A DNA stretch of 64,000 bases from Thermodesulfobacteriota bacterium (GTDB lineage Bacteria; Desulfobacterota; Desulfobacteria; Desulfobacterales; SURF-7), in the NCBI GenBank assembly GCA_049320885.1, contig JBMORA010000012.1:88445-152444 (forward strand). The letters are read 5' to 3'. Made by a program: the position numbers and the translations under genes. Shown in pieces: positions 42,040-62,360 of this stretch; the first letter of the stretch is position 1, and each line of letters opens with the position of its first letter. The notes under the pieces were generated by a model, which had not been told where the DNA came from, did no database searches, and was given only the letters and a program-made list of their open reading frames with translations.

Positions 42040-42046
42040 GCGGACG

Positions 42047-42633: not shown

Positions 42634-43635
42634 ATGATGTTCCGTTTCGCATCACCCCTCTTTTTCGTGTTGCTCATGGCGGTCCCCCTGGCGGTTTGGT
42701 ACCGTCGGAGGATCAAGCCGCATCCCAGTCTGAAGGTTTCCGATACGGTTGAGATTCAGCCGATCGGGGAGACGTTCCTCCTTGCCGCAGGACGCATGCT
42801 GCCGGCTCTGAAATATCTGGCATTTGCCCTGATGGTCATCGCCATGGCCCGGCCGCAATGGGGAACCCGGCAGACCAGCATTTTGACCGAAGGGGTCAAT
42901 CTGATTCTGGCGGTGGATGTTTCCGAAAGCATGGCGGCATTGGATTTTAAAAAGGAAGGCAAAATCGTCAACCGGCTGGAGGCGGTAAAGGGAGTGGTGC
43001 AGGATTTTATCACCAAACGCCGGGGGGACCGGATCGGCATGGTGGTGTTCGGCACCAATGCTTACACCCAGCTGCCCCTGACCCGGGATTACAACACCAT
43101 CGCCTTTATTCTCGATCGGCTCCGGATCGGCGCGGCCGGACCCAATACCGCCATCGGGGATGCCATCGGGATCAGCCTCAAAAGGCTCGCCGACATTAAA
43201 AGCAAGTCGAACGTGTTGATTCTGCTGACCGACGGCCAGAGCAATGCCGGTCAATTGACCCCGGAAGACGCCGCGGCGGCGGCTGTCCAGCAGGGAGTGA
43301 AAATCTACACCATCGGGGTCGGTACCCGCGGCCGGGCCCCTTTCCTGATCCGCGACCCCCTGTTCGGGGAGCGCTATGTGTATCAGCAGGTGGACATGGA
43401 TGAAGGCGTGCTGAAAAAAATCGCCGGCCAAACCGGGGGGCTGTATTTCCGGGCCGAGGATCTGAAGGGATTGAAAACCATCTATGAAACCATCGACCGC
43501 CTGGAAAAAACCGATGTCCGGATGAAATCCTTTGAGGAGTACAGGGAGTTATACACCTATTTTCTGCTGCCGGCCCTGGGTTTGCTGGCGGCCTGGATAC
43601 TGTTGTCCAATACCCGGTTTCTGAGGATTCCGTGA
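42634..43635 (+). CDS. batA: BatA vWA domain protein
   Basis: MARPQ, DVSESM MIDAS, DRIGMVVF, TAIGDAIG, LLTDG. Confidence 0.9.
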   Translation: MMFRFASPLFFVLLMAVPLAVWYRRRIKPHPSLKVSDTVEIQPIGETFLLAAGRMLPALKYLAFALMVIAMARPQWGTRQTSILTEGVNLILAVDVSESMAALDFKKEGKIVNRLEAVKGVVQDFITKRRGDRIGMVVFGTNAYTQLPLTRDYNTIAFILDRLRIGAAGPNTAIGDAIGISLKRLADIKSKSNVLILLTDGQSNAGQLTPEDAAAAAVQQGVKIYTIGVGTRGRAPFLIRDPLFGERYVYQQVDMDEGVLKKIAGQTGGLYFRAEDLKGLKTIYETIDRLEKTDVRMKSFEEYRELYTYFLLPALGLLAAWILLSNTRFLRIP

Positions 43636-45482: not shown

Positions 45483-45580
45483 CGAGAGAGCCAAGTTCAG
45501 GAGTCGGAAGACAGGGGCCAGAAGGGAGAGCTCAGGACGCCCGATTCTGAATTCCGGCTACCCGAGGGGTATCGCAAAAG

Positions 45581-47362
45581 GTGGGTGGATTGTTTTCTCA
45601 ACAGGATCGAAACAGGATTATGGTGCGACTCATCGGCGTGTTGCTTCTTCTTACGGCCACCAAGGCCGGCGCCGGAGAAGTGACGGCCGTCGTCGACCGG
45701 AACCGGATGAGTCCGGAGGAATCGGCGCTGCTGAGCGTCGTCATTCCGGGCGGGAGCGCCCAGGTGGATGTTTCCGCCATCACGGATTTCAAGGTGATTC
45801 CCCAGGGCACCAGTACCAGTGTCCAGGTGATCAACGGCCAGGTCAGCCGGGAGGCCCGCTACAATTACGCGATTCTGCCTTTGAAGGAAGGCCGGCTCGC
45901 CATCCCGTCCCTAACGGTCCGCATGGACGGGAAGACCTATCAAACCGATCCCATCATGATCTCCGTCGAGCAGTCCAAGGAGGCGCCGGAGCCGGGTGAA
46001 CAGCCCCTGTTTGTCGAGGCATGGGTGTCGAAAACCACGCCTTTTGCAGGGCAGCAGGTGATCTATACCTTCCGGTTGTACAACTCCGTGAAAATCGCCA
46101 ATGCAAACCTGCAGCCCCCTGACTTCAAGGGCTTCACCTCCCGGGAAATGGAACGGAAGCAGCCCTATCGCAAGGTGGTGAACGGTCGTGAGTACCTGGT
46201 TACGGAAGTCTCCTTCATCCTGGTTCCTTTGGCGCCGGGTCGTCTGGAGATCCCCCCGACGGCTCTGACCTGTGATGTGGTCCGCCAGCGGGCCCGGGAT
46301 CCGCGGCGTTTCCCGTTCGACTCCTTTTTCGATGATCCGTTTTTCAGCGGCGGGACCCAACTGGAAGCCCGGTTTTTAAAAACCCGGCCCATTGAAATGG
46401 ATGTCCGCCCGTTGCCGCCGGACACGGATGCCGCCGCCTTTTCCGGATTGGTGGGCCGCTTCGACTTGCAGGTGAACCTGGAGCCGGAAAAATTGAAAAC
46501 CGGAGATTCCGCCGCCCTGACCATCGTCCTGGCTGGAGAAGGGAATATCATGGAGGCCGAAATGCCGGATGTGAACATCCCCGGCGGTGTCAAGGTCTAT
46601 CCGGATGCTCCCCGGGAGGAAATCAAAACCGGACCGGAAGGGTACATCGGCACCAAAACATTCCGTGCCGCGCTGGTGGCCGTCGATCCGGGTGTTTACC
46701 GCATTCCGCCGATACGCATCCGCTATTTCGATATCAATGCCGGAGAATACAAGACCCTTGAATCCCGATCCGTTTCCCTGGAGGTTCTGCCGGGTGAAAA
46801 GCGGGAGGAATTGGAAGTCTACGGACCGCAATCGCGGGAATCATCCAACCGGATCCGTAAACATCGGGTGGAGTTTTCCGAACGGGATATCCTGCCGCTG
46901 AAAGACGATCTGGGCGCTGTGGAAAACCGGTCGGTTTTCCCCCTTCACCTGTTTTTGGCATTCCTGCTGATTCCCGCGGCATTGTCCGTTTCCGCCACGG
47001 CCTTGCTGCGGTATGCACGGCGCGACCGGAAACCCTCCGAGATGATGGCTTTCAGGGCGCGCAACGCCTTGAAAGCCGCCGGCGCCAAGAAGCATTCCCA
47101 CGGGGAATGTCTCGCCCATCTGCACAAAGCCCTGATGGCGGCCGTTTTTTCAAAAGCCGGGATACAGGGGGAAGCGGCCACCTATGACGAAATCCGGACA
47201 ATGCTGAAGCAGGCGGCCCTGGCAAGCGAAACCATCGACCAGACGATATCCCTGTTGAAGCGCATCGATTCCCTGCGATACGGCGGTATGGCGGGAAATG
47301 CGGGAGAGCAGGACCGGCTTCATGAACAGACGCGGACCGTGGTCAGGAGGCTTATTGCATGA
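45581..47362 (+). CDS. batD: BatD family protein
   Basis: TSTSVQVING, FDSFFDDPFF, FSGLVGRF, GEGNI, KVYPD; C-terminal TM; start may be ATG 45620. Confidence 0.85.
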   Translation: MGGLFSQQDRNRIMVRLIGVLLLLTATKAGAGEVTAVVDRNRMSPEESALLSVVIPGGSAQVDVSAITDFKVIPQGTSTSVQVINGQVSREARYNYAILPLKEGRLAIPSLTVRMDGKTYQTDPIMISVEQSKEAPEPGEQPLFVEAWVSKTTPFAGQQVIYTFRLYNSVKIANANLQPPDFKGFTSREMERKQPYRKVVNGREYLVTEVSFILVPLAPGRLEIPPTALTCDVVRQRARDPRRFPFDSFFDDPFFSGGTQLEARFLKTRPIEMDVRPLPPDTDAAAFSGLVGRFDLQVNLEPEKLKTGDSAALTIVLAGEGNIMEAEMPDVNIPGGVKVYPDAPREEIKTGPEGYIGTKTFRAALVAVDPGVYRIPPIRIRYFDINAGEYKTLESRSVSLEVLPGEKREELEVYGPQSRESSNRIRKHRVEFSERDILPLKDDLGAVENRSVFPLHLFLAFLLIPAALSVSATALLRYARRDRKPSEMMAFRARNALKAAGAKKHSHGECLAHLHKALMAAVFSKAGIQGEAATYDEIRTMLKQAALASETIDQTISLLKRIDSLRYGGMAGNAGEQDRLHEQTRTVVRRLIA

Positions 47363-48117
47363 AACACAATCGGGTGATCATCTGGCTTGGCATGTTCTTT
47401 CTGTGGGGTATTTCTGTGGCAAGGGCGTCGGAAAACGCCGCTCTTTTTTTGGAAGGAATCAAACAATATCAGCAAAAAGAGTATCACGAGGCCGCAAACC
47501 GGTTTCAGCAGATCGCGGCGAGCGGCATCGTCAACGGGGCTTTGTACTACAACCTGGGAAACGCCTATCTGAAAAGCGGTGATATCGGCCGGGCGGTTCT
47601 CTGGTATGAACGCGCGCGGAAAATTCTGCCCCGTGATCCGGATCTGAAATTCAACCTGAATTACGCCCGTTCCCTGGTGAAGGATGAGGCCGGTTTCAGC
47701 GGTTCCCCCCTGTACCGCGTCCTTTTTTTCTGGAATCATCTCCTGGGCCAAACGGAAATTTTGTGGAGCGCCGTCATCTGCAACCTGATCCTGTGGGTCA
47801 TCCTGGTTCTCCGGAAGATAACGGCCCACCGGGTATGGACCTATGTTTCCCTGCCGTTGTCCCTGATCACCTTCATTTTCGTGTCGACGGCCTTGTACAA
47901 CTATTATGAAACGGTTTTTGAAAAACAGGCCGTGGTTCTGCCGGCGGAAGTCGCCGTCCGCTCGGGCCTCTCCGAGGAAGACACGCAGCTGTTTCAACTG
48001 CATGCCGGCAGCCGGGTGAAGATCGATACGGCAAAAGGCGATTGCTACCGGATCTATTTTTCCGAAGGGAAGATCGGCTGGATCCGGAAGAAGGAGGTGG
48101 AGCCGATTTCACTCTGA
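47359..48117 (+). CDS. batE: BatE: TPR + SH3-like protein
   Basis: LYYNLGNAYLK..DIGRAVLWYERA..PRDPDLKFNL; two TMs; FQLHAGS...IGWI. Confidence 0.88.
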   Translation: MKHNRVIIWLGMFFLWGISVARASENAALFLEGIKQYQQKEYHEAANRFQQIAASGIVNGALYYNLGNAYLKSGDIGRAVLWYERARKILPRDPDLKFNLNYARSLVKDEAGFSGSPLYRVLFFWNHLLGQTEILWSAVICNLILWVILVLRKITAHRVWTYVSLPLSLITFIFVSTALYNYYETVFEKQAVVLPAEVAVRSGLSEEDTQLFQLHAGSRVKIDTAKGDCYRIYFSEGKIGWIRKKEVEPISL

Positions 48118-48326: not shown

Positions 48327-50465
48327 ATGGATGAGGAAGTATATGATCGCCACACGTCGTTGAAGTTGGGTGAACTCCTGCTGAAGGAAGGTTTCATCAA
48401 GAAAAAGGATGTGCGGGAGGCCCTCCGGATTCAACAGGAGGAAGCCGAGGAGGCCAGGCTCACCGAGGAAGCCTACATGATCCGGAAAAGGTTCATCGGC
48501 GAACAACAGCTGATCGACCTGAACGACCATCCGGAGCGCGGCAACATGCCCATCAGCCGTCTGGCGTACACGCTGAACCTCATCAGCAAGAAGCAATTGG
48601 ACGAAATCAACAGCCGGGAACGTTCCCAGAGAAGCATGGGGGAAATCCTGTGCGCCATGGGCCGGATCACCACCCACGACCTGAACTATATTCTTCAAAA
48701 ATACAGTAAGCAGTTGAAATTCGGTGAAATATTATTGAGGCACGACCTCATCGACGAAACCAAGCTCAACCTGGTGTTGCGGGAGCAGCACCAACAGCCG
48801 GATCCGTTGGGGAAAATTCTGGTGCAGAAAAACCTCATCACCGTGGAGCAGCTGTATCAGACCCTGTCCAAACAGTACAATATCCCTTTCCGGAAACTGG
48901 AAGGGTTCGTCATTTATGACAATCAGATCGATAAACTGACGGATATCATCAGCTGTAAATACGCCAAACGGAACCAGGTCCTGCCCTTGTCACTGCATGG
49001 CGACACATTGACCATCGCCGTGTTCGATCATGTGCGGATTCCCATTCTGCATGAACTGGGCAGGGTCTACACCCATCTGAAAATCAAATGCGTTTTCATC
49101 ACCGAAGAGAAATTCGAGGAATTGTTCGAGCATTTATACGGCAAGGCCATCAACCGCTCCCTCAAGGAGGAAGACAGGCGGAAACAGGCCAGCGTGCTGG
49201 ACACCATCGATATCGATCTGGATATCAAGTCCGGTGACCTCTATGGACTCAGCTCGCTGGAAGCCGAGGATGTGGTCAATTTCATCATCAAATACGGCAT
49301 CATTCATCGCGCCAGTGACATTCATATCGAGCAGAACCGCCACCGGCCCCATATCCGGTATCGCATCGACGGGGTGTTGCGCTCCCTGAAACTGCCCTGG
49401 CTGGACGACCGCCTGCAGGACAATATCGGCGCCGTGGTCTCCAGGATCAAAGTCATTGCCAATCTGGACATAGCGGAAAGGCGGCTGCCCCAGGACGGCG
49501 TTTTCCGGATCAATTATTTCGACCGGGAGAAGAAGCAGGCCTTTGATCTGGATTTCCGGGTGGCCATTTGCCCGGCCATCATCGGCGAGAATGTCACCAT
49601 GCGGATTCTGGATTCCCGCAAGGCGGATGTCGGGCTTGCCAATCTGCAGCATTCGGCTGAGGTGCTGGAACCGTTCAAGGCGCTTTTGAAAAGCTCCGCG
49701 GGCGTTGTGCTGGTATCCGGACCCACCGGAAGCGGCAAGACGTCGACGCTATACGGCGCCTTGAAACACATCAGCTGCACGGGCATTAAAATCGTCACCG
49801 CCGAGGAGCCCATCGAATACAGCTTCCCGGATATCATGCAGACCCAGATCAACCCGAAGATCGGTCTGACCTATGCCAAAATCCTGAGGTCTTTTTTGCG
49901 GTTCGATCCGGATGTGATCATGCTGGGAGAGATGCGGGACAAGGAGACCGCCGATATCGGTTTCGATGCGGCGCTGACCGGTCATCTGCTGCTCAGCGCG
50001 ATCCATACCAATGACGCTGCCGGCGTTATTTCCCGGTTGCTGGAGCTGGAAATCGACAGAAGCCGGATCGCCGCCAGCCTGAAGGGAGCCCTGGCCCAGC
50101 GTCTGGTGAGGCGGACTTGTCCCAATTGCCGGCGCCAGGTCAACCCGCCGAAGGAAGAATGGTCCATTCTGTTTAAGCACTATCCGGAGCAACTTGTCTT
50201 TCAAGAGGGGGACGGCTGTGCGGAATGTAATTTTTCAGGCTATAAGGGCCGGACGGTGATTTCCGAACTGTTCGTCATGAACAGGGAGATATCCATGGCC
50301 CTGAATCTGGATGCGGAGGTGGGGGAAATCCGGCAGATGGCCCGGCAATACGGCATGCGCACCATGGTGGACGACGGGATAACAAAATTGGATCAGACAA
50401 CCCTTTCGGAAATCATCCGGGTTGTTCCCCATGAACTGATGAGAGAGTTCCGGGACCGGAAATGA
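48327..50465 (+). CDS. GspE/PilB family ATPase with extended MshEN-like N-terminus
   Basis: ASDIHIE, LDIAERRLPQDG, Walker A GPTGSGKTS, DPDVIMLGEMRD, CxxC..CxxC; N-terminal LGE(L/I)L repeats. Confidence 0.9.
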   Translation: MDEEVYDRHTSLKLGELLLKEGFIKKKDVREALRIQQEEAEEARLTEEAYMIRKRFIGEQQLIDLNDHPERGNMPISRLAYTLNLISKKQLDEINSRERSQRSMGEILCAMGRITTHDLNYILQKYSKQLKFGEILLRHDLIDETKLNLVLREQHQQPDPLGKILVQKNLITVEQLYQTLSKQYNIPFRKLEGFVIYDNQIDKLTDIISCKYAKRNQVLPLSLHGDTLTIAVFDHVRIPILHELGRVYTHLKIKCVFITEEKFEELFEHLYGKAINRSLKEEDRRKQASVLDTIDIDLDIKSGDLYGLSSLEAEDVVNFIIKYGIIHRASDIHIEQNRHRPHIRYRIDGVLRSLKLPWLDDRLQDNIGAVVSRIKVIANLDIAERRLPQDGVFRINYFDREKKQAFDLDFRVAICPAIIGENVTMRILDSRKADVGLANLQHSAEVLEPFKALLKSSAGVVLVSGPTGSGKTSTLYGALKHISCTGIKIVTAEEPIEYSFPDIMQTQINPKIGLTYAKILRSFLRFDPDVIMLGEMRDKETADIGFDAALTGHLLLSAIHTNDAAGVISRLLELEIDRSRIAASLKGALAQRLVRRTCPNCRRQVNPPKEEWSILFKHYPEQLVFQEGDGCAECNFSGYKGRTVISELFVMNREISMALNLDAEVGEIRQMARQYGMRTMVDDGITKLDQTTLSEIIRVVPHELMREFRDRK

Positions 50466-52363
50466 TGCCAGCAGCTAAAGACCCAATTTCGTCAACGGAA
50501 AAATTACTGGGAGTGATCCGCAACACCCCTGCGTCGGTAACGACCGGTTTGCAGGCGGAGTCCCGTCAAGAGCCATGGTTTCACTTACGGAAAAAAGCGT
50601 TTCCGTTTGTCAAATCCGTGACCGTGGGCGTGGTTGTCGGTCATAGGGATGTGACCCTGGCCATGGTCAGCAGGGTGGGGGACCGCCGATATCAACTGAT
50701 GGATTTCAGGAAGGTCGCCCTGAAGGCCGGCATCCATAAAAGCCATGCCCAATTCCCGGTTTTTTTAAAACAAACCCTGAAGCAGTTCTGCGGCGCCGGC
50801 GATAATGTCCACATATGGAGCACCATCCCTTCCGCCCGGGTTGAAATTCGATTTGTGAAAATTCCCAAGGTTCCGGACGGACAGGTCGCCAATGCCGTTT
50901 ACTGGTCGTACAAAAAAATGGTGGCGTTTGATGAAAAGGAGATGATTTTCGATTTCGAAATCCTGGGGGAAGTCCAGGAAAACGGGGGCAGAAAGATCCA
51001 GGCCATGGCCTATTCCGCTCCGAGGGCCGAGGTCGAATCCTGGAAAAAATTGTTTGCCGAAATCGGCTTTCCGCTTTCCGGTCTGTCCATTGTTCCGTTT
51101 TCGCTGCAAAACCTCTTCCGGACGAATATCATCGACCAGGCAGGCGAGCATGTCTGTTCCCTGTATATCGGTCAGGACTGGTCGCGCATCGACATTTTTT
51201 CCGCCGGCCGTCTGGTATTGTCACGGGATATCAAGACCGGGATGAACAGTTTCATCGAGTCCATCCGCACCGGATTGATAACGGACAAAAGGGCGGGAAC
51301 GGCGGAAGCGGAAAAACAGACGGGGGAACCGGACAGGGAACCGGAGGAAACGGAAGATCGCCGGCAACCGGAGCCAGGGGCGGAATCCGGGGGACGCGAG
51401 GAGGCCCGGAGATTATTTTACCGGCTGATCCGGCCGGAAGCCGACGGAAGCCGGCCCGAAAGGCCGGATGCATGTACCGAGGAGGAAATCATGGACATGA
51501 TTTCCCCGGTTCTGGATCGACTGGTGAGACAGGTGGAAAGGACCCTCGGCCATTTTACGCTGCATTTCGCCAACAAAACCGTGGAACGGTTTTATCTCGG
51601 AGGGGAAATCAGCGGCTTTGCCCGGCTGGTGGAACTGATGGGCGATCAGTTGAGCCTTCCCATCCGACACCTCAATCCGTTCCCGGAATCCCTGCTGAGC
51701 GGGAGTCTGTCGGCTGTCCCCGGAACCATTCCGGAAAAAGACTCCTTTGTTCCGGCCATCGGAACAGCCCTTTCCAATCTCAACTTGACCCCGAATCTCA
51801 TGTATACCTACCGATACAAGGCCATTCAAGCGAGAATCCAGCGGACGAATCGCTTCATTTTCGCTGCTTTTTGTTTGTTGACCTGCATTTGTCTGGGAGT
51901 GTTCTACCTTCAGGAACGGCTCGCGGACCAGAAGAGGGCCGAGTTGAATCTCCTGGAAAAGCAAATCGCCCGTTTCAGCCCCATTGTCGACGAACAGCTG
52001 CTCCAAAAGATGGTGGCCCGGGTGGAAGCGAACCAGAGGATGGTGCTGTCGAACGCCGGACGGTATTTAGGCGTATCCCTGCTGAACGAACTGGCGGAGT
52101 TGACTCCGGAACATATCCGTCTGATCCAGGTGCGGCTGGAGCTAGGGGCCGGAATCGAAAAAGGCAGGAATCCATCGCGCTCCCTGATCATAGAGGGTAT
52201 CGTAACGGACCGTTTCGGCGAGAAGGAATCGGAACTGGCCGTGTATTTGACGAAACTGAACGGCTCGCCGCTGTTCGACCGTCCCACCGTGATGCAAAAA
52301 TCCATGAAACGATACCAGGACGCCGATGTGCTGCGTTTCACGGTAAAACTGGAAACCATTTGA
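50462..52363 (+). CDS. PilM-PilN fusion (MshI/GspL-like alignment protein)
   Basis: Actin-like PilM region (LYIG, FYLGG, AIGTAL), then PNL motif, TM, coiled coil and LLNELAELTPEHIRL PilN domain. Confidence 0.75.
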   Translation: MMPAAKDPISSTEKLLGVIRNTPASVTTGLQAESRQEPWFHLRKKAFPFVKSVTVGVVVGHRDVTLAMVSRVGDRRYQLMDFRKVALKAGIHKSHAQFPVFLKQTLKQFCGAGDNVHIWSTIPSARVEIRFVKIPKVPDGQVANAVYWSYKKMVAFDEKEMIFDFEILGEVQENGGRKIQAMAYSAPRAEVESWKKLFAEIGFPLSGLSIVPFSLQNLFRTNIIDQAGEHVCSLYIGQDWSRIDIFSAGRLVLSRDIKTGMNSFIESIRTGLITDKRAGTAEAEKQTGEPDREPEETEDRRQPEPGAESGGREEARRLFYRLIRPEADGSRPERPDACTEEEIMDMISPVLDRLVRQVERTLGHFTLHFANKTVERFYLGGEISGFARLVELMGDQLSLPIRHLNPFPESLLSGSLSAVPGTIPEKDSFVPAIGTALSNLNLTPNLMYTYRYKAIQARIQRTNRFIFAAFCLLTCICLGVFYLQERLADQKRAELNLLEKQIARFSPIVDEQLLQKMVARVEANQRMVLSNAGRYLGVSLLNELAELTPEHIRLIQVRLELGAGIEKGRNPSRSLIIEGIVTDRFGEKESELAVYLTKLNGSPLFDRPTVMQKSMKRYQDADVLRFTVKLETI

Positions 52364-52914
52364 TGGCTTCGAAACCGATAACCAATCGCATTCCGCGTCT
52401 TCCCAGACGCAGCGTTTACTATCTGGCTTTTTGTTTCGCCGGTATCATGTGTTTTTTACTGGCCGGCCTGCTGCCCAATCAGCGCCAGCTGGAGGAACTT
52501 GACGCGGAGATCGGCCGTCTGAACCAGGCCATCGAGAGGCAGACCAGGCTCTATCCGGTTTTCCAGAAGGCGCTCCAGGCCATGCAGCAGAAAGAGCAGC
52601 GGCTGCTCCCCTTTCCGGAAAAACAGGGCTACCCTGTTTCACGGCTTGGAGAAATGCCCGCTCTTTTTCAGCGCATTGCCATGGAGAGCGGTCTGGCCTA
52701 TCAGGAAGCGGTTCCGGATGTCAGCAGTTTGAAAAAAGACACCGATCGTCTTCGGCTTCATATCGTGGTAAAAGGTGATTTCATCCGTTTTCATGATTTC
52801 TTGCGGCGACTTGGGACTCTTTCTTATCTGGAGCAAATCGAAAGCATCCTCATTACGGCGGAAGGGGACAGGAAGGAATACGGGTTGCAGGCATGGGTTT
52901 GGATTCAACCATGA
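52363..52914 (+). CDS. PilO/MshJ-like protein
   Basis: TGATG-coupled start; TM + coiled coil + VKGDFIRFHDFLRRL. Confidence 0.75.
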   Translation: MASKPITNRIPRLPRRSVYYLAFCFAGIMCFLLAGLLPNQRQLEELDAEIGRLNQAIERQTRLYPVFQKALQAMQQKEQRLLPFPEKQGYPVSRLGEMPALFQRIAMESGLAYQEAVPDVSSLKKDTDRLRLHIVVKGDFIRFHDFLRRLGTLSYLEQIESILITAEGDRKEYGLQAWVWIQP

Positions 52915-52930
52915 GCGGCGGGGGAGCCAG

Positions 52931-53416
52931 ATGAGCACGCGGGAAAAGGTGATTGTTTTCTGCATGATGGGAGTCGTCATCTACGGTGCCGTTCAGTTTT
53001 TCGGTTCATCCACCCGGTCCCCGGGGCTGGATGCGCAAGGGGAAGTCCCGGGGCTGGATGCGTTTATCGTCACCATGGCCGGGATATTGAACAAACAGAA
53101 TCCGTTTGAAGCGGATTATGTTCTGGAAAAGGCCGTGAAACCGTTTGCCAAGGATCCTTTTGTCACGGTCAACGCCCTGCCGGACAAGAACGCCGGACCG
53201 GAGAAAACAGCGCCGTCGGATTATCCGATGGTTTATACCGGCTATGTGAGGGTGGGAGACACCATGGTGGCCGTCATTAACGGGACGGAATACGAGACCG
53301 GCGACATGATCGAGCCGGGCGGATACCGGGTGACCCGCATTTCCCCCGAACAGGTCGAATTGCAGGCGAAAACAGGCGAGAAGAAAAGTGTGCAGCTGCC
53401 GAACGAGAACCCTTGA
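52931..53416 (+). CDS. PilP/MshK-like pilus assembly protein
   Basis: GGGGAG RBS; N-terminal TM; KDPF; YTGYV...AVING...GD...VTRISPEQVEL; lies between PilO-like gene and secretin. Confidence 0.6.
   Translation: MSTREKVIVFCMMGVVIYGAVQFFGSSTRSPGLDAQGEVPGLDAFIVTMAGILNKQNPFEADYVLEKAVKPFAKDPFVTVNALPDKNAGPEKTAPSDYPMVYTGYVRVGDTMVAVINGTEYETGDMIEPGGYRVTRISPEQVELQAKTGEKKSVQLPNENP
53019..53062 (+). repeat. Short in-frame direct repeat
   Basis: CCCGGGGCTGGATGCG at 53020 and 53047 (27 bp apart), encoding PGLDA twice. Confidence 0.6.
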
Positions 53417-53464
53417 AACTGAAAGGGCCCCGGGGCGGCGTTTGGCCGTCTACGGAATGAGCGT

Positions 53465-55657
53465 ATGAACAGAAACCGGAATCAAAGCCATTTTACGGAT
53501 CTCCTTGCCGCGGTCGCCATAACCGGCCTTCTGCTGGCCGGATGCAAGGATCATTATCGGACAAAACCGGACCCCGCTTTCGAAAAATGGCGCATTAAAG
53601 CGGAAACCGCCGTCGGCCATTCGCCGGCGGACACAACGCCCCTCATGGCCCCCGGGCACCGGAAAGAGCCGCCGGCGGTAAAACCGGAACCCGCGGCGCC
53701 GACCCGGGAGGAACGCGGGCTGCCCACGCGGAAAATCAGCATGAACCTTTCGGATACCAGGGTGACGACGGTGCTGCGGGCCTTGGCCCGCGCCGTCGAT
53801 TTGAATATTCTGGTCAACGAAAAGGCCGCCGGTAAAACCAGCATCCATGTCAAGGATGCCCGCTGGGACGAGTTGTTTGTCGGTATTCTGCGTTCCAACG
53901 GCCTGACATATGCCTGGGAAGGGGATCTGATCCGGGTGATGACCCTGGAAGACATGGATCGGGAGCTGAAGGGCGCGGCCCAAAACCGGGACATGCAGCT
54001 GGCCAGACCGCTGCTGACCAGGATCGTTTCCATTCATTACGCCGATGAACAAAAGCTGAAAGCCAGCCTTGAAAAATTTCTGTCCACCGGCAAGGAGGGG
54101 AAAAGCGTCGGATCGATCATGGTGGATGAACACAGCCGGTCCCTGATCATCCAGGCCATCGAGGAAGATATGGCCCAGTTGATTTCCCTGATCGATGAGC
54201 TGGACAACCCCACCCCCCAGGTTCTGATCGAGGCGAATATCGTGGAGGCGGAAAGGGAAGTCGCCAGGGAACTCGGGGTCCAATGGGGCGGATTGGCCGT
54301 CAACAAGGGTACGGTCAACCATTTCCTGACCGCCGGCTCCAGAAGCAGCGGTGTTGTGGGAGGAACCCTCGACAAAGCCATTAATCCCACCTCGGGCATG
54401 ATCGCCAATTTCCCCGCCACTATGAGCGACGGGACCGGTTTGGCCATCGGGTATGTGGCTGAAAATGTGGGGGGTAATATTTTGATGGTGCAATTATCGG
54501 CCCTGCAACAAGAGGGCAAGCTGAATATCTTGTCCAGTCCTTCCATCACCAGCATGAACAATCAGACCGCCGTCATTGAAGCCGGCACCAATGTGCCCTT
54601 TCAGACCGTTTCGAAGGAAGGCAATATCAATATCGAATGGAAGGAAGCGGTTCTGAAATTGGAAGTCAAACCCAACGTCATCGATCCGGAAACCGTCAAA
54701 CTGCTGATCAAGACCAACAAGGACGAACTCAATTTTGCCAACAGCGTGGCCGGCAATCCCACCATCATCACCAAGAAGGCCGAAACCAGTGTGGTGTTGA
54801 TGGATGGGCAGACCACCGTCATCGGCGGCCTGAACAAGGAGACCCGGCAGAACACGGATACGGGGGTGCCCTGGTTCCAACAGATACCCCTGCTGGGGTA
54901 TCTCTTCAAGAGCAACAGCAAGTCCGATAAAATGGAGGATATTCTCATTTTCATCACCCCCCACATTCTGAAACCAAGACCGGTGGCGGCCGCGGCGCCT
55001 CCGGTGCCCGCGTCCGGGGAAAGCCTCCGGCCGGCGGATGATTCCGGAAACGGCTCTCCGGATGTGACGGCGGAAAGACCGCCGGTGGTCCCGGATCCAG
55101 GCGATCCGCCGTCCTTGCCGTCACCGATCCCATCCAATGCGAATTCGGCAAACGCCGCCGCGGGTCCGCCCGTGGTGATCGGCCAGGCAGCGGCCGGGGA
55201 GGGGGAAACCCTGTGGGACCTCATCCGGATGATATACGGAACTTTCCATCCGTCCCATCTCCAGGCGATTCTGGATATCAACCCGCACATCCGGTCACCG
55301 GAAAGCCTTCGTGTCGGTCAGCTCGTCTATTTTCCGGCCCGGCCCATGGCGGCGCGGCCGGATGGACCCCGTTCCTGCTGGATTAGGATCGATGGGAAAA
55401 AAACGCTGCCGGAGGCCTTGCAATATCTGCGCTTTTACCCGGCGGACAACCCGCCGGTTCGTATGCTGCCTTACTGGAGCCCGTCAACGGGCCTGGGGTT
55501 CGACATCCTGATGGAAGAATATTTTCCAGATCCCGATGCGGCCGGGGATGTTCTGAAAACCCTGCCGCCATCCCTGGCGGAACGGGCGAAAATCATCACC
55601 GGATGGGAAGACGGCACGATTTTTTTTGCCGATCCGTATCTGGTGATAAAGCGATAA
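53465..55657 (+). CDS. pilQ: Type IV pilus secretin (PilQ/MshL-like lipoprotein) with C-terminal LysM-like extension
   Basis: Lipobox LAGC; LDNPTPQVLIEANIVE, LSSPSI, DGQTTVIGGL, VPWFQQIPLLGYLF, LIFITPHI; Pro-rich linker plus extra domain. Confidence 0.88.
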   Translation: MNRNRNQSHFTDLLAAVAITGLLLAGCKDHYRTKPDPAFEKWRIKAETAVGHSPADTTPLMAPGHRKEPPAVKPEPAAPTREERGLPTRKISMNLSDTRVTTVLRALARAVDLNILVNEKAAGKTSIHVKDARWDELFVGILRSNGLTYAWEGDLIRVMTLEDMDRELKGAAQNRDMQLARPLLTRIVSIHYADEQKLKASLEKFLSTGKEGKSVGSIMVDEHSRSLIIQAIEEDMAQLISLIDELDNPTPQVLIEANIVEAEREVARELGVQWGGLAVNKGTVNHFLTAGSRSSGVVGGTLDKAINPTSGMIANFPATMSDGTGLAIGYVAENVGGNILMVQLSALQQEGKLNILSSPSITSMNNQTAVIEAGTNVPFQTVSKEGNINIEWKEAVLKLEVKPNVIDPETVKLLIKTNKDELNFANSVAGNPTIITKKAETSVVLMDGQTTVIGGLNKETRQNTDTGVPWFQQIPLLGYLFKSNSKSDKMEDILIFITPHILKPRPVAAAAPPVPASGESLRPADDSGNGSPDVTAERPPVVPDPGDPPSLPSPIPSNANSANAAAGPPVVIGQAAAGEGETLWDLIRMIYGTFHPSHLQAILDINPHIRSPESLRVGQLVYFPARPMAARPDGPRSCWIRIDGKKTLPEALQYLRFYPADNPPVRMLPYWSPSTGLGFDILMEEYFPDPDAAGDVLKTLPPSLAERAKIITGWEDGTIFFADPYLVIKR

Positions 55658-55685
55658 CCATTTTCAGTCGTGCCTCAAGGATGCC

Positions 55686-57326
55686 ATGGAGTATTTTGAA
55701 ATACTCAATTTGAAACGGGAACCGTTTTCCAATTCCCCTGATCCGGATTTTTTCTTTCATTCGCGGCAGCATGTGGACTGCCTGCAGAAGCTGGAGATCG
55801 CCGTGCGGCTGCGGCGGGGATTGAATATAGTGGTGGGCCCGGTGGGAACCGGCAAGACCACCCTTTGCCGGCAGTTAATCCGCCGTCTCGGGAATGATCC
55901 CGCCATCGAAACCCATCTGATGCTGGATCCGCGCTATCCCGATGCGACCATGTTTTTACGGTCTGTTGCGGAAATGTTCGGGGATCAGGGCTCCGATCTT
56001 CCGGACCTTGGCGAATCCGGCTGGAAGGAACGGATCAAACAGATTTTGTTCCGGAAAGGAGTAGATGAAGGAAAAATCCTGATCCTGATCATCGACGAGG
56101 GCCAGAAGATAACGGCCGCCTGCCTGGAAATACTGCGGGAGCTCCTGAATTTTGAAACCAACGATCGCAAACTGCTGCAGATCGTGCTTTTCGCCCAGCC
56201 GGAATTGGAAGCCTTGGCCCGGGACCATGCCAACGTCACGGATCGGATCAATTTGTACCACCGGTTGGGACCGTTGTCGTTTCGCGATACCTGCCGGTTG
56301 ATCCGTTTCCGACTGGAACAAGCCGTGGAAGGGGACCAGGCCCCCCGGCTGTTCACGGTCCCCGGCATGTGGGCCGTTCATCGATTCACCTTCGGCTATC
56401 CCCGGAAAATTATCAACCTGTGCCACAACTGCGTGCTGGCAATGATCATTCAGAACCGCTCCAAAGCGGGATACCGGCTGGTGCGGTCGTGCAGCGGGCG
56501 GTTGTTTCCGGAAAAGCCGCCACCCTCCCGTGCGATGAAGGTGGCGACCGCTGGAGGATTGTTGATCCTCGCGGCCCTGGTTGCGGCGGATCAGTACGGA
56601 GGAGCCGGGTTCTTCGGCAGCACCGGGGGGATCATGGCCGCCGTCCAGCACTCCTCTCCCCCTGCCGGCCCTCCGGCCCCTGCCAATGCGGGACCGGGCA
56701 ATGGCCTGCCCGCTGATGCGGTCCGGAAGGCTGGAAATCGGTCCGCAGCCATCTTGGGAGCCGAAGAACCGCGGACCGATCCGCAACCTGAAGGTGGACC
56801 GGCGGGACCAAAACCGGATGCCGTTATCCGGAAACAACCAATGCCCCGTTTTCTTGGACACGCGGCGATCAACAAAGGCGAATCCCTTTCCCAGCTCATT
56901 CAGTTGGTCTATGGGGGGTTCAATGGCGTTTATCTGGAGGCGGTTCTGGCGGCCAATCCCTTCATCCGGCGGGTGGAGGCCATCGAGACCGGTAATCTGA
57001 TTCATTTCCCGGCTGTTTCCACCGATGTGGGAAGCACCGGCATGCGGTGCTGGTGGGCCGGGCTGGATGAGGGCGCCGATCTGGCGGATACATTGAAACA
57101 AGTGCGCGAATATCGAATTCAGGGCGTTCCCGCACGGCTGATTCCCAGCTATCATCCGGAAACCGGGCTGCGCTTTTCCATCATTTTACGCGGCTATTTT
57201 TTTGAGGAAACCGATTTCCAGAAAAGGCTGGCGGAACTTCCCCGCTCCGTTGCCGAAAAAGCCAGAAGGATTCGGTCATGGGGAGATGCGCAAACCGTAT
57301 TCTTTGCGAATCCGTATCTGATGTAG
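55686..57326 (+). CDS. ExeA/MshM-like AAA ATPase with TM and C-terminal LysM-like module
   Basis: EPFSNSPDP, GPVGTGKTT, IIDEGQ, LLQIVLFAQPEL, GYPRKIINLC. Confidence 0.88.
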   Translation: MEYFEILNLKREPFSNSPDPDFFFHSRQHVDCLQKLEIAVRLRRGLNIVVGPVGTGKTTLCRQLIRRLGNDPAIETHLMLDPRYPDATMFLRSVAEMFGDQGSDLPDLGESGWKERIKQILFRKGVDEGKILILIIDEGQKITAACLEILRELLNFETNDRKLLQIVLFAQPELEALARDHANVTDRINLYHRLGPLSFRDTCRLIRFRLEQAVEGDQAPRLFTVPGMWAVHRFTFGYPRKIINLCHNCVLAMIIQNRSKAGYRLVRSCSGRLFPEKPPPSRAMKVATAGGLLILAALVAADQYGGAGFFGSTGGIMAAVQHSSPPAGPPAPANAGPGNGLPADAVRKAGNRSAAILGAEEPRTDPQPEGGPAGPKPDAVIRKQPMPRFLGHAAINKGESLSQLIQLVYGGFNGVYLEAVLAANPFIRRVEAIETGNLIHFPAVSTDVGSTGMRCWWAGLDEGADLADTLKQVREYRIQGVPARLIPSYHPETGLRFSIILRGYFFEETDFQKRLAELPRSVAEKARRIRSWGDAQTVFFANPYLM

Positions 57327-57389: not shown

Positions 57390-59099
57390 TTGAAAAACAA
57401 GAAAAAATTGGGCGAAATGCTCCTGGAAGCAGGCCTGCTGACGGAATCCCAGCTGGCCAGGGCCATGGGCATCCACAAAAAACAGAATGTAAAACTCGGC
57501 CAGGTGCTGGTGCGGGAGGGGATTCTCAGCGGTTCGCAGATTGCCGACACCGTATCCCGACAGCTCAAGATCGAGAAATACAGCCCGGGCACCTATCCCA
57601 TCGATATGAATCTCGCCAAGGTGATCCCGGCGGAAATTGCCCAGAAATATCAGGCGGCTCCTTTGAAAAAGGACCGCTCTCTGCTGAAACTGGCCATGAC
57701 GGACCCCATGGACATCAATGCCATGGATGCCATCGAAGTATACACCAATACCGAAGTGGAAGCTGTGATCTGCACGGACAAGGAATTGAACCACTTGATC
57801 AGCAGTATCTACGGCACCTATTCCGGAATCGGCGGCATTCTGGAGAACATGGAGGAAATGCAGTTCGAGCGATCCGACGAGGCGGAAAAAGAGGCCGCGG
57901 TTGAAGATGTGGAAGTCGGCTCGCTCCATGACATGGCTGAAGAGGCCCCCGTCATCCGGCTGGTGAATTCCATTCTGTCCCAGGCGGTTCGGGAGGGGGC
58001 CAGCGATATTCATATCAGTCCGGAAAAAGATTATGTGCAGGTACGGTTTCGAGTGGACGGCAAACTTCACGAAGTTCCGGCGCCTCCCAAATCCATGTTT
58101 CTCCTGATCATATCCCGGCTGAAAATCCTGGCGAACATGGATATCGCCGTATCCAGGACACCCCAGGACGGCCGTTTCACGGTCAAGATGGACCGCAAGG
58201 AAATCAATATCCGGGTTTCCACCATTCCCACCATCTATGGGGAAAATATGGTCCTCCGCTTGCTGGATACCAGCGGCGGGATTTATTCCCTGGAACATCT
58301 GGGGATCTCCCCGGAGGATTGCCGGAAACTGGAATCCATGATTTTTCAGCCCTACGGCATGATCCTGAGCACCGGGCCCACCGGCAGCGGGAAGAGCACC
58401 TGCCTGTATTCCATCCTGAGACGGATCAACCAGCCGGACATCCACATCATCACCTTGGAGGATCCGGTTGAATATCGGATCGAAAAAATCAGGCAAATCC
58501 AGTTGAACCGAAAAGCCGGGATGACCTTTGCGAGCGGACTTCGTTCGGTGATGCGACAGGACCCGGATGTGATCATGGTGGGCGAGATCCGGGACTCCGA
58601 AACCGCCACCATTGCCGTGCAGGCCGCACTCACGGGACATCGGGTGCTCAGCACGGTGCATACCAACGATGCCGCCGGGGCCATCACCCGGTTTATCGAT
58701 ATGGGCATTGAACCGTTTCTGGTTTCCTCGGTCATGCTGATTTCCATCGCCCAGCGTCTGGTCCGCCGGGTTTGCCCCTATTGCAAAAAGCCCTATCAGC
58801 CGCCCCGGGCGGCCCTTGAATACTGGGGGTTGGATAAAATCGAAGGGGCGGATTTCGTGAAAGGCAGCGGTTGTTTCAATTGCATGGACACCGGCTATAA
58901 AGGCCGAATCGGTATCTATGAGGTGCTGCGGATCGATGAAATGGTTCAGGACATGATTTTAAAGAAATTTTCCGCCCAGGAAATCACCCGGGCCGCCCGC
59001 CAGAACGGCAGCCTCCGGACTCTCAAGGAGGATGCGGCCGCCAAGGTCCTGGAAGGGATCACGACGCTGGAAGAGGCGGCTTCGGCGGTCATGGTGTAG
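57390..59099 (+). CDS. MshE/PilB assembly ATPase with MshEN domain
   Basis: KLGEMLLEAGLLTESQL...KLGQVLVREGIL; GPTGSGKST; TLEDPVEY; RQDPDVIMVGEIRD; TGHRVLSTVHTND; TTG start. Confidence 0.92.
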   Translation: MKNKKKLGEMLLEAGLLTESQLARAMGIHKKQNVKLGQVLVREGILSGSQIADTVSRQLKIEKYSPGTYPIDMNLAKVIPAEIAQKYQAAPLKKDRSLLKLAMTDPMDINAMDAIEVYTNTEVEAVICTDKELNHLISSIYGTYSGIGGILENMEEMQFERSDEAEKEAAVEDVEVGSLHDMAEEAPVIRLVNSILSQAVREGASDIHISPEKDYVQVRFRVDGKLHEVPAPPKSMFLLIISRLKILANMDIAVSRTPQDGRFTVKMDRKEINIRVSTIPTIYGENMVLRLLDTSGGIYSLEHLGISPEDCRKLESMIFQPYGMILSTGPTGSGKSTCLYSILRRINQPDIHIITLEDPVEYRIEKIRQIQLNRKAGMTFASGLRSVMRQDPDVIMVGEIRDSETATIAVQAALTGHRVLSTVHTNDAAGAITRFIDMGIEPFLVSSVMLISIAQRLVRRVCPYCKKPYQPPRAALEYWGLDKIEGADFVKGSGCFNCMDTGYKGRIGIYEVLRIDEMVQDMILKKFSAQEITRAARQNGSLRTLKEDAAAKVLEGITTLEEAASAVMV

Positions 59100-59121
59100 A
59101 ACAAGTACGGAAGGTAACGGC

Positions 59122-60342
59122 ATGCCGAAATACAAATATCTGGCCTTTGATGAATCCGGTGCGGAAAAAAACGGCAGCCTGGACGCCGATTCCCTGGAAA
59201 TGGCCCTCAACCAGCTGAATGCCCGGGGATGGATACCAAGTCGGGTGATGGCTGCCTCGGGGGCGTCCGCCGGCTTCACCATCCAGGCCGTCAACGAATA
59301 CCTGACACCGGTCAACGCGCCTGAATTGATACTTTTTACCAAGCAATTCAGAACGATGTTACGTTCCGGCGTGCCCATGATCAAGCTGCTCCAAATCCTG
59401 GAGACCCAGACGGAAAACATCCGTCTGAAAAGCATCATTCTGGCCATGGCGGAGGACATTCGGGAGGGGGCCAGTCTTCACGACGCTTTCCGTAAGCATC
59501 CCAAGGCGTTTTCGCCATTGTATTGCAGCATGGTCCAGGCCGGTGAGGCCAGTGGCGCGCTGCCGGAGGTGCTCGACCGCCTTTCCTATATTATCGAACA
59601 TGAGCATAAAATCAAATCGGATATCCGGAGCGCCCTGCAGTATCCCCTCATCGTCATCCTGTTTCTGTTCCTCGCCTTTTTTACCTTGCTGACCTTCGTG
59701 CTTCCCAAATTCGTCCGCATCTTTCTGAGCGCCGGGTTGACCCTGCCCTGGCCCACCCGCATTTGTTTATCCCTGTACGAGATCATCAACCGGCATTGGC
59801 CGATACTTCTCCTGGGGGTGGCGGCGGGATTGTTGTTGCTGATCTATTATCTTCGCACGGAACCGGGACGGTATGCCAGGGATACGATTCTGCTGCGAAC
59901 CCCCCTCATCGGTTCCCTCTTCCTGAAGGCGGCGATGTCGAGATTTGCAAGCATATTTGCGATATTACAATCAAGCGGGGTGGAAATAAGGGAATGCATG
60001 AAAATACTGACCGGCACCATGGGAAACAGCGCCATCGCCCGGGAATTTGAGAAAATCACCAGCCGTCTGGAGGAAGGTCGGGGAATTTCAGGCCCGCTGA
60101 AGGAGGCGGCGTATTTCACGCCGATTGTCGTCAACATGATTGGTATCGGTGAAGAGTCCGGGAAACTGGATGAAATGCTGTCGGAAATTTCCGCGCATTA
60201 TGATTTTGAGCTGGAATACGCCATGAAAAAGATGTCGGACGGCATCGGTCCGGTTCTGACCATCGGGCTGGCGGCGGTGGTGGGGTTTTTTGCTCTGGCC
60301 ATATTTTTACCCATGTGGGATATGACCAAGATGGTGCACTAA
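59122..60342 (+). CDS. Type II secretion F family platform protein (PilC/MshG)
   Basis: FTKQFRTMLRSGVP, AGEASGAL, ALQYP, GEESGKLDEML, AIFLPMW. Confidence 0.92.
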   Translation: MPKYKYLAFDESGAEKNGSLDADSLEMALNQLNARGWIPSRVMAASGASAGFTIQAVNEYLTPVNAPELILFTKQFRTMLRSGVPMIKLLQILETQTENIRLKSIILAMAEDIREGASLHDAFRKHPKAFSPLYCSMVQAGEASGALPEVLDRLSYIIEHEHKIKSDIRSALQYPLIVILFLFLAFFTLLTFVLPKFVRIFLSAGLTLPWPTRICLSLYEIINRHWPILLLGVAAGLLLLIYYLRTEPGRYARDTILLRTPLIGSLFLKAAMSRFASIFAILQSSGVEIRECMKILTGTMGNSAIAREFEKITSRLEEGRGISGPLKEAAYFTPIVVNMIGIGEESGKLDEMLSEISAHYDFELEYAMKKMSDGIGPVLTIGLAAVVGFFALAIFLPMWDMTKMVH

Positions 60343-60345: not shown

Positions 60346-61680
60346 ATGAACAGCAGAAACAATCGTTTTTACATCAGCCTGTATATTATTATTCCTATTA
60401 TTATCGGTGGATTGTGCATTATCTCCGCCCTGGTTTCCTATCGTCTGACGGAATATTTCATGAAGCAAGGTCTCGCGGCGGGCAACGCGGTGGCTTTCTG
60501 GATCCTGATCATCAGTCCGGTCGCTTTTTTATGCGGGTTTGTCCTGGTCTGGTTTCTGCTGAGTCCGGCCCAGAACTTCATCGCCCATGCCAACCGGATT
60601 CCGGCAGTTTCCAGCCGCAAACAGGAAATCGAACCGGAAAGAAAACTCAGCGAGCTGGCGCACATGGAACACATCTTTCACACCGTGACGGATGTATTGA
60701 GCAAGGTCGACGCCCGGCAATCGTTTCCCGAAATCGTGGGCGAGAGCCGGGCCGTGCGAGGAGTGCTCAGTCAGATCGTGAAGGTGGCGCCAACGGAATC
60801 CACCGTGCTGATCATGGGGGAAAGCGGCACGGGAAAAGAGCTGGCAGCCGTCAGCATCCACAAGCATGGCAGCAGAAAAGACAAACCGTTCATTACCTTG
60901 AATTGTGCCGCGATTCCCGGTGAACTGCTGGAAAGCGAATTGTTCGGACATGAAAAAGGGGCTTTCACCGGGGCCGCGAGCCGCAGGCCGGGCAAATTCG
61001 AACTGGCCCATACGGGGACCATTTTTCTGGATGAAATCGGCGACATGCCACTGGCGTTGCAGGCCAAGATTCTGCGGGTGTTGCAGGAAAAGGAATTTGA
61101 CCGGGTGGGTGGAAGCCGGCCGGTGAGAGTCGATGTGCGCATCATTGCGGCCACCAATAAAAATTTGTCCAAAATGGTGGCAGAGGGAAGTTTCCGGGAA
61201 GATTTATACTACCGGCTCAATGTGTTCCGCCTGCAACTTCCCCCCTTGCGCGAGCGAAGGGAAGATATTCCACTTTTGGTTCAAATGGTTATACGGGGGA
61301 CGAGCAAGCCGGAGCTGGTGGTGACTCCGGAAGCCATGCGGCGGTTCATGGAATATTCCTGGCCGGGTAACATCCGGGAGCTTCAGAATGTGGTGGAGCG
61401 CGCGGCGGTGCTCTGCGACGATCGGATCGACATTGCGCATCTGACGCCGCCGCTCACCGGTCCGGGGACCGGTACACGGCTCCCGCTGCCGATGGGTACC
61501 GATAGTTCCATAGACGATTATTTGCATGAAATGGAAAAACAGCTCATCGTGGAAGCCCTGAGGCAGGTACGGGGGGTGCAGGTGGAGGCGGCAAAACTGT
61601 TGAAGATCAATCCGCGCAGTCTCTGGCATCGGGTTAAGAAACATCATATCGAGGTAGCCCTGATTAAAAACGACAAATAA
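60346..61680 (+). CDS. Membrane-anchored sigma54-dependent activator (TM-TM-HAMP-like-AAA+-HTH)
   Basis: Two N-terminal hydrophobic helices; GESGTGKE, ESELFGHEKGAFTGA, FLDEIG, WPGNIREL; Fis-type HTH; no receiver domain. Confidence 0.9.
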   Translation: MNSRNNRFYISLYIIIPIIIGGLCIISALVSYRLTEYFMKQGLAAGNAVAFWILIISPVAFLCGFVLVWFLLSPAQNFIAHANRIPAVSSRKQEIEPERKLSELAHMEHIFHTVTDVLSKVDARQSFPEIVGESRAVRGVLSQIVKVAPTESTVLIMGESGTGKELAAVSIHKHGSRKDKPFITLNCAAIPGELLESELFGHEKGAFTGAASRRPGKFELAHTGTIFLDEIGDMPLALQAKILRVLQEKEFDRVGGSRPVRVDVRIIAATNKNLSKMVAEGSFREDLYYRLNVFRLQLPPLRERREDIPLLVQMVIRGTSKPELVVTPEAMRRFMEYSWPGNIRELQNVVERAAVLCDDRIDIAHLTPPLTGPGTGTRLPLPMGTDSSIDDYLHEMEKQLIVEALRQVRGVQVEAAKLLKINPRSLWHRVKKHHIEVALIKNDK

Positions 61681-61706
61681 TGGAGACCAACCTACAAATT
61701 TTGTAG
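61671..61706. promoter_or_regulatory. Tandem candidate upstream activator sites
   Basis: Perfect palindrome CTACAAA-T-TTTGTAG (61692-61706) and 11/15 copy CGACAAATAATGGAG (61671-61685), 21 bp apart. Confidence 0.5.
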
Positions 61707-61822
61707 CAAAGGGCGAACATGGTGATGAAAAAAATGGCTCTCCAGCCGGCATGATCTCGTTTATTTATTGTAAAACCAAATTGATAATAATATATTGGGA
61801 AATGTAGAAAAAATTTAAAAAA

Positions 61823-61840
61823 ATGGTCTGAAATGTGCTA
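61823..61840 (+). promoter_or_regulatory. Sigma54 (-24/-12) promoter candidate for the pilin gene
   Basis: ATGGTCTGAAATGTGCTA: GG(61825-26)-N10-GC(61837-38); AT-rich upstream tract; adjacent sigma54 activator gene. Confidence 0.6.
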
Positions 61841-61934
61841 AAGGAATAATGCGGAGACAGCGGGTTGAACAACGAAACCGGCGGCAACCATCGTGAGGAA
61901 GAAAGACATGCGAGGGGGAAAGGAGATGGAATTC

Positions 61935-62360
61935 ATGAAAAAGGAAGGGGAAGGCGTGGTAAAACAGAAATGGCTTCAAGATGAGGCTGGTTTCACCTTG
62001 GTTGAAATCATTGCTGTTCTGGTGATTTTAGGCATTCTCGCCGCTGTGGCGATTCCGAAATATTTTGATCTTCAAAGTGAAGCCAGGACCAAGGCCTTGT
62101 CCGGCGCCATGGGGGAGGCGGTGGGGCGGCTGAATCAAAAATTCGGTCTGGCGCTTCTTCGGGGCTCCATTGCCAGTGAGATCTCCTATACCACGGCGGA
62201 TCTGGGGGCGGATTTGGGGGATTTCACCCTGGCAAGTTCCGGACCCGGCGTGCCGGCTGGCGGCAGTGGCGATATTTTGCTGACCATCACCGGAAAGGCG
62301 GGGACGCCCCTTGCCAGCCTGGTCATGACGCGCAGGATTCCACGGCCCACCCCGCCGTAA
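61935..62360 (+). CDS. Type IV (MshA-like) pilin
   Basis: Class III signal AG|FTLVEIIAVLVILGILAAVAIPKY; 122-aa mature protein; AGGAG 9 nt before ATG 61935 (other starts possible). Confidence 0.9.
   Translation: MKKEGEGVVKQKWLQDEAGFTLVEIIAVLVILGILAAVAIPKYFDLQSEARTKALSGAMGEAVGRLNQKFGLALLRGSIASEISYTTADLGADLGDFTLASSGPGVPAGGSGDILLTITGKAGTPLASLVMTRRIPRPTPP

Follow-up and report, generated by a model that had tools for sequence, protein, structure and literature searches.

A predicted membrane-anchored one-component sigma54 activator of an MshA-like pilin in Thermodesulfobacteriota

Control of the major pilin promoter by a membrane sensor and a sigma54 activator is described for PilS/PilR of Pseudomonas aeruginosa in the available portions of two reports (PMC6058289, PMC11960060), according to the first of which PilS binds PilA via membrane segments and pilA promoter activity rises as the membrane pool falls (PMC6058289). 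One-component enhancer-binding proteins of the NifA, NorR and PspF types, together with DVU0151 of Desulfovibrio, combine an AAA+ core bearing GAFTGA with a Fis-type helix-turn-helix (HTH), an upstream site and a -24/-12 promoter; their inputs, as far as the accessible text goes, comprise GAF domains, PAS domains, no domain at all or long conserved N-terminal regions, and none is described there as transmembrane (PMC4641369). Membrane helices and a DNA-binding domain are joined in one chain in ToxR, CadC and BcrR, and the accessible part of a survey of transmembrane regulators tabulates 72 entries with HTH_8, no sigma54 domain being named among 30 of those 72 rows (PMC10269533). MSHA clusters, known from Vibrio and from the Msh locus of Pelobacter carbinolicus, hold an MshA-like pilin, MshE-like c-di-GMP ATPases, a platform protein, a secretin and an ExeA-like ATPase, and in the available excerpt the P. 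carbinolicus locus runs mshG-mshB-mshA without an intervening regulator (PMC3543383).

Here we analyze a 64,000-nucleotide stretch of a Thermodesulfobacteriota genome, hereafter the window, that shares features with each of these systems (Table 1). Like PilS/PilR, it pairs a membrane sensor with a sigma54 activator ahead of a major pilin, and its regulator gene sits, as the PilS-type genes identified in this work do, between pilC and the pilin gene. Unlike PilS/PilR, the predicted regulator is a single chain lacking kinase and receiver, with two helices and a HAMP-like linker instead of six helices, a sensor without detectable homology to that of PilS, an ATPase outside the PilR clade and a different binding site, and its pilus is of MSHA type, in a genome that also has an intact PilS/PilR. 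It has the core, HTH, upstream site and promoter type of one-component enhancer-binding proteins, and it resembles ToxR, CadC and BcrR in its membrane anchoring, whereas it acts through an ATPase, which has to oligomerise and remodel sigma54. The gene content of the cluster matches that of described MSHA clusters, but a dedicated activator and a sigma54 promoter are inserted where P. carbinolicus has none. No published description of this family, of its palindromic site or of a PilS-PilR fusion was found in a search of mostly non-subscription literature, and sequence comparison indicates a genuine sigma54-activator variant that has apparently not been described before, its target well supported and its signal inferred. 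The composite reading put forward below, on which we are evenly balanced, is that of an inner-membrane sigma54 activator of the MshA-like pilin, probably switched by pilin at its helices and likely derived from a kinase-regulator fusion.

Table 1 Features of the pilus cluster, the activator and the pilin promoter (positions in the window)
Feature	Position	Strand	Basis
Second MshE-like ATPase, two c-di-GMP motif stretches	48327..50465	+	family models
Rest of pilus cluster: fused PilM-PilN, PilO-/PilP-like (labelled by position), secretin, ExeA-like ATPase	50462..57326	+	
PilB/MshE-like ATPase with c-di-GMP-binding motif	57390..59099	+	family models
PilC/MshG-like platform protein	59119..60342	+	Pfam, neighbourhood comparison
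One-component sigma54 activator, 444 aa: TM-loop-TM, HAMP-like, AAA+, HTH	60346..61680	+	ORF, hydropathy, Pfam, AF2 model
Predicted TM1, residues 8-34	60367..60447	+	hydropathy, alignment
Short loop, residues 35-48 (about 14 residues), predicted periplasmic	60448..60489	+	topology from helix-flanking basic residues
Predicted TM2, residues 49-72	60490..60561	+	hydropathy, AF2 model, alignment
Divergent HAMP-like linker, residues 73-121	60562..60708	+	AF2 model, profile alignment
AAA+ sigma54-interaction domain and lid, every motif intact	60733..61455	+	Pfam, motif check
Fis-type HTH, family signature GxQxxAAxxLxIxxRSLWHRxKK	61522..61641	+	Pfam, HTH profile
Weaker second palindrome copy, 2 mismatches, 21 bases upstream of first, overlapping activator stop codon	61671..61685	.	
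Predicted activator binding site CTACA-AATTT-TGTAG	61692..61706	.	intergenic comparison, genome scan
Predicted sigma54 -24/-12 promoter ATGGTCTGAAATGTGCT, 131 bases downstream of palindrome	61823..61839	+	promoter scan, conservation
MshA-like major pilin, mature from 61992 (FTLVEIIAVL...)	61926..62360	+	ORF, best solved relative
Convergent membrane protein with TPR repeats, truncated at contig end	62408..64000	-	recurrent pilin neighbour

The cluster genes of the window were assigned to general families, and we designate the cluster MSHA-type because the best solved relative of its pilin is MshA (Vibrio, PDB 9lab, E 2.7e-10) and because the MshE c-di-GMP motif scores above the cut-off in both of its ATPases. 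The most likely start codon of the pilin is ATG 61926, which follows an AGGAG, rather than GTG 61893. The first 22 residues of the pilin, E5 and P22 among them, are nearly invariant in 20 aligned sequences.

An earlier note, made from the letters of the window, had described the activator as two transmembrane helices joined by a very short loop, followed by an intact GAFTGA AAA+ core and an HTH, without a REC domain, without a kinase gene nearby and 3 bp behind a PilC/MshG-like gene, and this description is borne out throughout. Hydropathy peaks at 2.71 (residues 12-30) and 2.65 (residues 53-71), with a maximum of 1.12 at scoring-window starts 121-140, and an AlphaFold2 (AF2) model of moderate confidence (pLDDT 69.7) places helices at residues 12-40, 45-82, 86-92 and 103-125. 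Pfam calls Sigma54_activat at residues 130-296, the lid at 302-370 and HTH_8 (PF02954, E 2.2e-10) at 393-432; Walker A, NCAA, ESELFGHEKGAFTGA, Walker B, arginine finger and sensor II were all found, and the HTH signature is common to the activators and their two-component relatives. Pfam detects no receiver (Response_reg, PF00072) in the protein, two kinase queries returned no match at E 1e-5 among the ORFs of the 152 kb contig C12, and the start codon lies 3 bases past the pilC stop at 60342. We hence describe the activator as a predicted membrane-anchored one-component regulator that carries its helices and its DNA-binding domain on a single polypeptide. A hidden cognate kinase was considered and rejected: across the genome of the window, the kinase-sensor profile matches only the activator itself. 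The genome contains rpoN. Among the best 25 matches listed, no NCBIfam model scores above its cut-off for the activator; in a protein atlas it falls in a cluster at 0.91, and structure searches point to HAMP kinases at a TM of about 0.5, both to be read as leads only.

The HAMP-like segment claimed in the same note stands in part, in that the profile alignment relates it to the TM2-HAMP region of kinases, but Pfam does not call HAMP here. PF00672 is below the cut-off in the activator and reaches E 0.081 in one homolog, while the corresponding stretch of a related kinase (L059) passes at E 4.6e-6. When the family profile is aligned with the TM2-HAMP region of five ordinary kinases, the probability is 97.3 (E 2.6e-11); this is not a blind test, the five having been taken from weak matches of the same profile. 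The HAMP layout is present, with a Pro-led amphipathic helix (P74, F78) straight after TM2, a variable connector and a DE-led second helix (S/D102-E103) that runs as a heptad helix into the ATPase; the HAMP motif usually has a glycine after helix 1, and this glycine is missing from the linker.

The best-conserved part of the sensor is the N-terminal half of TM1, ISLYIIIPxIxxG (mean identity 0.57), in which P17, I19 and G22 are nearly invariant, and the loop is poorly conserved (0.15). With conservation concentrated in TM1 and in the HAMP-ATPase junction (0.56) and not in the loop, the sensor offers no obvious pocket for a ligand from outside, and its input is likely to come from within the membrane. 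This input is very probably relayed from the two helices via the HAMP-like linker directly to the ATPase, with no phosphate transfer. The helices might instead do no more than anchor the activator or bring about its dimerisation, the protein being constitutively active and controlled by a cascade at the level of operon expression and not by sensing. The divergence of the HAMP segment, below the Pfam cut-off, would accommodate such an arrangement, as would a gene likely cotranscribed with pilC, but histidine kinases rely on this module as their sole membrane input, and the TM1 motif and the HAMP heptads are conserved throughout the phylum, and we consider it improbable.

The N-terminal 135 residues of the activator retrieved 18 full-length proteins and were matched in 16 of 41 related genomes. 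A sensor profile matched 87 of the 201 genomes of the order (76 at E<=1e-19), with members also in other orders, and all 76 strong-match genomes fall among the 91 that carry this MSHA-type pilC. The gene lies downstream of pilC in each of the first 22 loci, with the pilin gene directly after it in 15, farther away in 2 and not seen in 2, the other 3 ending at a contig edge. A fresh set was compiled from 60 of the 64 new strong-match genomes, leaving out 4 with the gene at a contig end; pilC is upstream in 57, and a pilin gene is downstream in 50, not seen in 5 and undetermined in 5, which makes pilC (57/60) a more constant neighbour than the pilin (50/55 determinable). The survey of homolog neighbourhoods that the earlier note had proposed thus shows conserved linkage to pilin, which lies downstream in 50 of the 60 fresh loci. 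GAFTGA is found in 50 of these loci and GSFTGA in 2, the pattern being unmatched in 8; activator frames are short or split in L029:9893-11310, L135, L144 and L184, through assembly error or decay.

Comparison of intergenic DNA yielded a TGG-N9-TGC promoter preceded by a consensus palindrome, CTACA-N5-TGTAG. The copy at 61692-61706 in the window is the sole perfect match in the 5.6 Mb genome, and the spacer separating it from the promoter is 69% A+T. The GG-N10-GC promoter previously noted ahead of the pilin is present at 61825-61838; such a match alone occurs in 7% of shuffles, but its position is conserved across the family. Among 23 pilin promoters (18 from activator loci and 5 from two-component loci), the palindrome was found with at most 1 mismatch in 18 (0.16 expected) and the sigma54 promoter in 21 (1.09 expected). 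Because the consensus had been derived from these same promoters, the scan was run on the fresh loci. Where a pilin is present, the promoter occurs in 45 of 50 within 330 bases (2.9 expected) and in 46 of 50 within 450, and the palindrome in 29 of 50 with at most 1 mismatch (0.13 expected) and in 41 of 50 with at most 2 (4.0 expected). The 5 fresh loci without a visible pilin have neither the promoter nor a site with at most 1 mismatch. Fifteen genomes carry this pilC with no strong activator match, 5 of them ending at contig edges, and the 10 usable loci, in which the pilin gene comes immediately after pilC, show neither a promoter nor a site within 2 mismatches. In one locus (L033) the pilin gene is convergent and 3.7 kb away, and it keeps both elements, which speaks for their belonging to the pilin. 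All these counts come from kindred genomes, in which the gene and its sites could go in one deletion, and are thus not independent trials.

From these comparisons it is highly probable that the activator drives the MshA-like pilin promoter, its likely binding site being the palindrome immediately downstream of its gene. A wider regulon was sought and rejected, with no site or promoter upstream of the other genes of the operon or of the likely minor-pilin cluster on contig C24; one other 1-mismatch site accompanied by a promoter-like match lies on C39. The search for an integration host factor (IHF) site gave only 2-mismatch matches, and scans for sigma70 promoters and terminators gave counts at chance level.

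The earlier note had placed the activator in the position of PilS/PilR and proposed a survey for the absence of pilS and pilR. The first claim applies to the position of the gene, at a second, MSHA-type pilus, but not genome-wide; the absence was contradicted. A PilS-type kinase with six transmembrane helices (6TM) lies behind a second pilC on contig C9 of the same genome, and a receiver-type PilR-like gene precedes another pilin on C64, with a promoter of its own and TGACAA-N3-TTGTC repeats, so that replacement of PilS/PilR across the genome is ruled out. The PilS membrane domain (PF25323) scores above the Pfam cut-off in 21 of the 22 activator-bearing genomes tested, and 20 of the 21 matches have pilC or a PilR-like gene as a neighbour. 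Profile comparison (probability 0.4, E 0.14) led us to reject a PilS origin of the sensor, and in a quick tree the PilR clade (SH-aLRT 97) excludes the ATPase-HTH of the activator. The PilR-side repeats and the palindrome share an ACAA-N3-TTGT core, on account of which cross-talk from PilR is possible, and the pilin promoter could in principle be driven by this PilR or by another activator, leaving the window's gene a bystander. We deem this most unlikely, for palindrome and promoter vanish where the activator gene is lost and persist in the 5 two-component genomes lacking a PilS-type domain.

The repeats and the pilin on C64 map to L190 (G000:C64:161993-164248); a near-duplicate of that pilin at G000:C47:30960-31427 is without the promoter pattern, and two further perfect TGACAA-N3-TTGTC repeats lie on C39. 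The genome also encodes a second membrane-bound sigma54 activator (L189:6862-9375, G000:C63), an 837 aa protein with a TM-large loop-TM-HAMP-AAA layout in which Pfam calls HAMP but no Fis HTH; its neighbours, labelled by eye, are a pair of small membrane genes and a large gene of PEP-utilising-like type. Compared by description only, it resembles the DVU0151 type, and it shows that the window's protein is not the only membrane-bound activator of broadly this architecture.

Weak matches of the sensor profile led to seven distant genomes with the order pilB-pilC-kinase-regulator, in which a pilin gene comes next in 5, is not seen in 1 and is cut off by a contig end in 1. The N-termini of these kinases are homologous to the activator sensor (probability 97.5, E 4.9e-12). 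Searched with the activator HTH profile, nine two-component regulators score 66-79 bits, the window genome's other 41 activators at most 50 and its PilR 27. The two-component pilin loci have the promoter in 5 of 5 and the palindrome within 1 mismatch in 4 of 5, and PF25323 is present in none of the seven genomes. With a kinase of homologous sensor and a regulator of like HTH at the same position in seven genomes, five of which have the same DNA sites, the activator is likely a collapsed two-component system, in which a single protein would do what the kinase-regulator pair likely does in relatives. The simplest path, and the probable origin, is a single in-frame deletion that removed the kinase core and the receiver from a kinase gene and a regulator gene lying side by side. 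Trees of the ATPase are poorly resolved and neither show nor reject common descent: one placed activators and regulators on one side of a branch with a support of 52, and a core-only tree put seven regulators apart. PAS-bearing forms of the sensor occur both as kinases and as fused activators.

A parallel fusion was found in two genomes, where a 679 aa protein (L095:7922-9961 in G072; L096:5622-7661 in G305) has a 6TM_PilS-PAS-AAA-HTH layout, a PilS-like N-terminus and an ATPase within the PilR clade, in a canonical pilB-(pilT)-pilC-pilA setting. It lies between pilC and the pilin gene in G072 and before a pilin-like frame without the N-terminal motif in G305, and the HTH regions of the two fusions score 47 and 55 bits with the activator profile. 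Other arrangements of the sensor were also seen. L060:4562-7218 (G305) encodes a sensor-PAS-AAA protein with a different C-terminal end, and the next pilin has a sigma54 promoter and no palindrome. In P0037 and P0042 (L097:3234-6101) the two-helix sensor and a degenerate activator ATPase are fused to an MshEN-PilB motor, giving a protein of about 955 aa with no HTH, and the sole locus seen (L097) has no pilus genes beside it. In P0021, a 742 aa protein from a cluster of 10, sensor and degenerate ATPase are fused to kinase and receiver domains.

As to the signal, the membrane pool of unassembled pilin is a candidate that we weigh evenly, by analogy with PilS; pilin sensing is an analogy because the sensor has no detectable relation to that of PilS. 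Pilin bound to the sensor helices would hold a HAMP-linked dimer off, and growth of the pilus, by depleting pilin, would allow dimers on the two sites to assemble into an active ring, yielding a homeostat with the logic of PilS/PilR and an unrelated sensor. The control of an off-state dimer through a helical linker is modelled on NtrC1-type activators. The sensor helices contain no invariant basic residue to pair with E5 of the pilin (R7 in 21/43, R69 in 24/47), and the window's activator has W69.

With activator and target unchanged, the sensor may alternatively monitor the assembly machine, be it the platform (PilC/MshG) or the motor, and serve as a checkpoint that allows pilin to be made only with a free or active platform. 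This has a lesser though appreciable chance, given that pilC is directly upstream in 22/22 first and 57/60 fresh loci and only 3 bases away here, that the activator is never seen without this type of pilC and that sensor and ATPase are fused to the motor in P0037 and P0042. The only locus seen for that fusion lacks adjacent pilus genes, however, and a place next to pilC does not identify the ligand, since PilS too lies directly behind pilC in these genomes and yet is reported to sense pilin.

A different membrane cue, such as envelope stress, surface contact, lipid state or another partner protein, or release of the activator by intramembrane proteolysis, as known for other membrane regulators, is unlikely. 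Some two-component relatives do lie away from a visible pilus cluster (L058), and further output fusions exist (P0021), but pilus genes are the only conserved partners in the annotated loci and the junction of HAMP and ATPase is kept at full length and highly conserved. Returning to the pilin pool as signal, we would tentatively regard the two-helix hairpin as a second, independently evolved pilin-counting sensor that binds the membrane helix of the pilin, gates a sigma54 ATPase directly and has been wired, in separate lineages, to kinase, activator and motor, its collapse running parallel to that of PilS-PilR, so that pilin homeostasis would repeatedly have dispensed with phosphorelay by means of enhancer-binding proteins tethered to the membrane; this is somewhat less probable than the signal itself.

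The locus would constitute a compact and full regulatory unit for an MSHA-type pilus, comprising sensor-activator, predicted site, promoter and target, and the unit is carried by over a third of the sampled genomes of the order, in cells that appear to run two pili under two separate sigma54 circuits. Matched one- and two-component versions of one circuit allow a direct test of the collapse of a phosphorelay into a single protein. The system is suited to the study of a HAMP segment gating a membrane-tethered AAA+ ring, and a sensor of about 120 residues is simpler than PilS for studying sensing by membrane helices.

Several observations concern the surroundings of the cluster. Three minor-pilin genes and a large adhesin-like gene (L191, G000:C24:36067-40113) adjoin this pilin in relatives, for example in L017, and are probably the relocated minor-pilin set of the window's MSHA-type pilus. 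The convergent TPR membrane protein might, as a guess, be a pilin glycosyltransferase. Within 53465-57326, the secretin and the ExeA-like ATPase resemble each other in a C-terminal extension, with 35-38% identity across 160-210 aa. Directly upstream of the cluster and on the same strand, a run of MoxR-like ATPase, vWA and TPR genes (38571-48117) is presumably Bat-like. Two paralogs of about 530 aa built from FSPD-type repeats (32401-33987 and 40429-42039) are likely beta-propellers.
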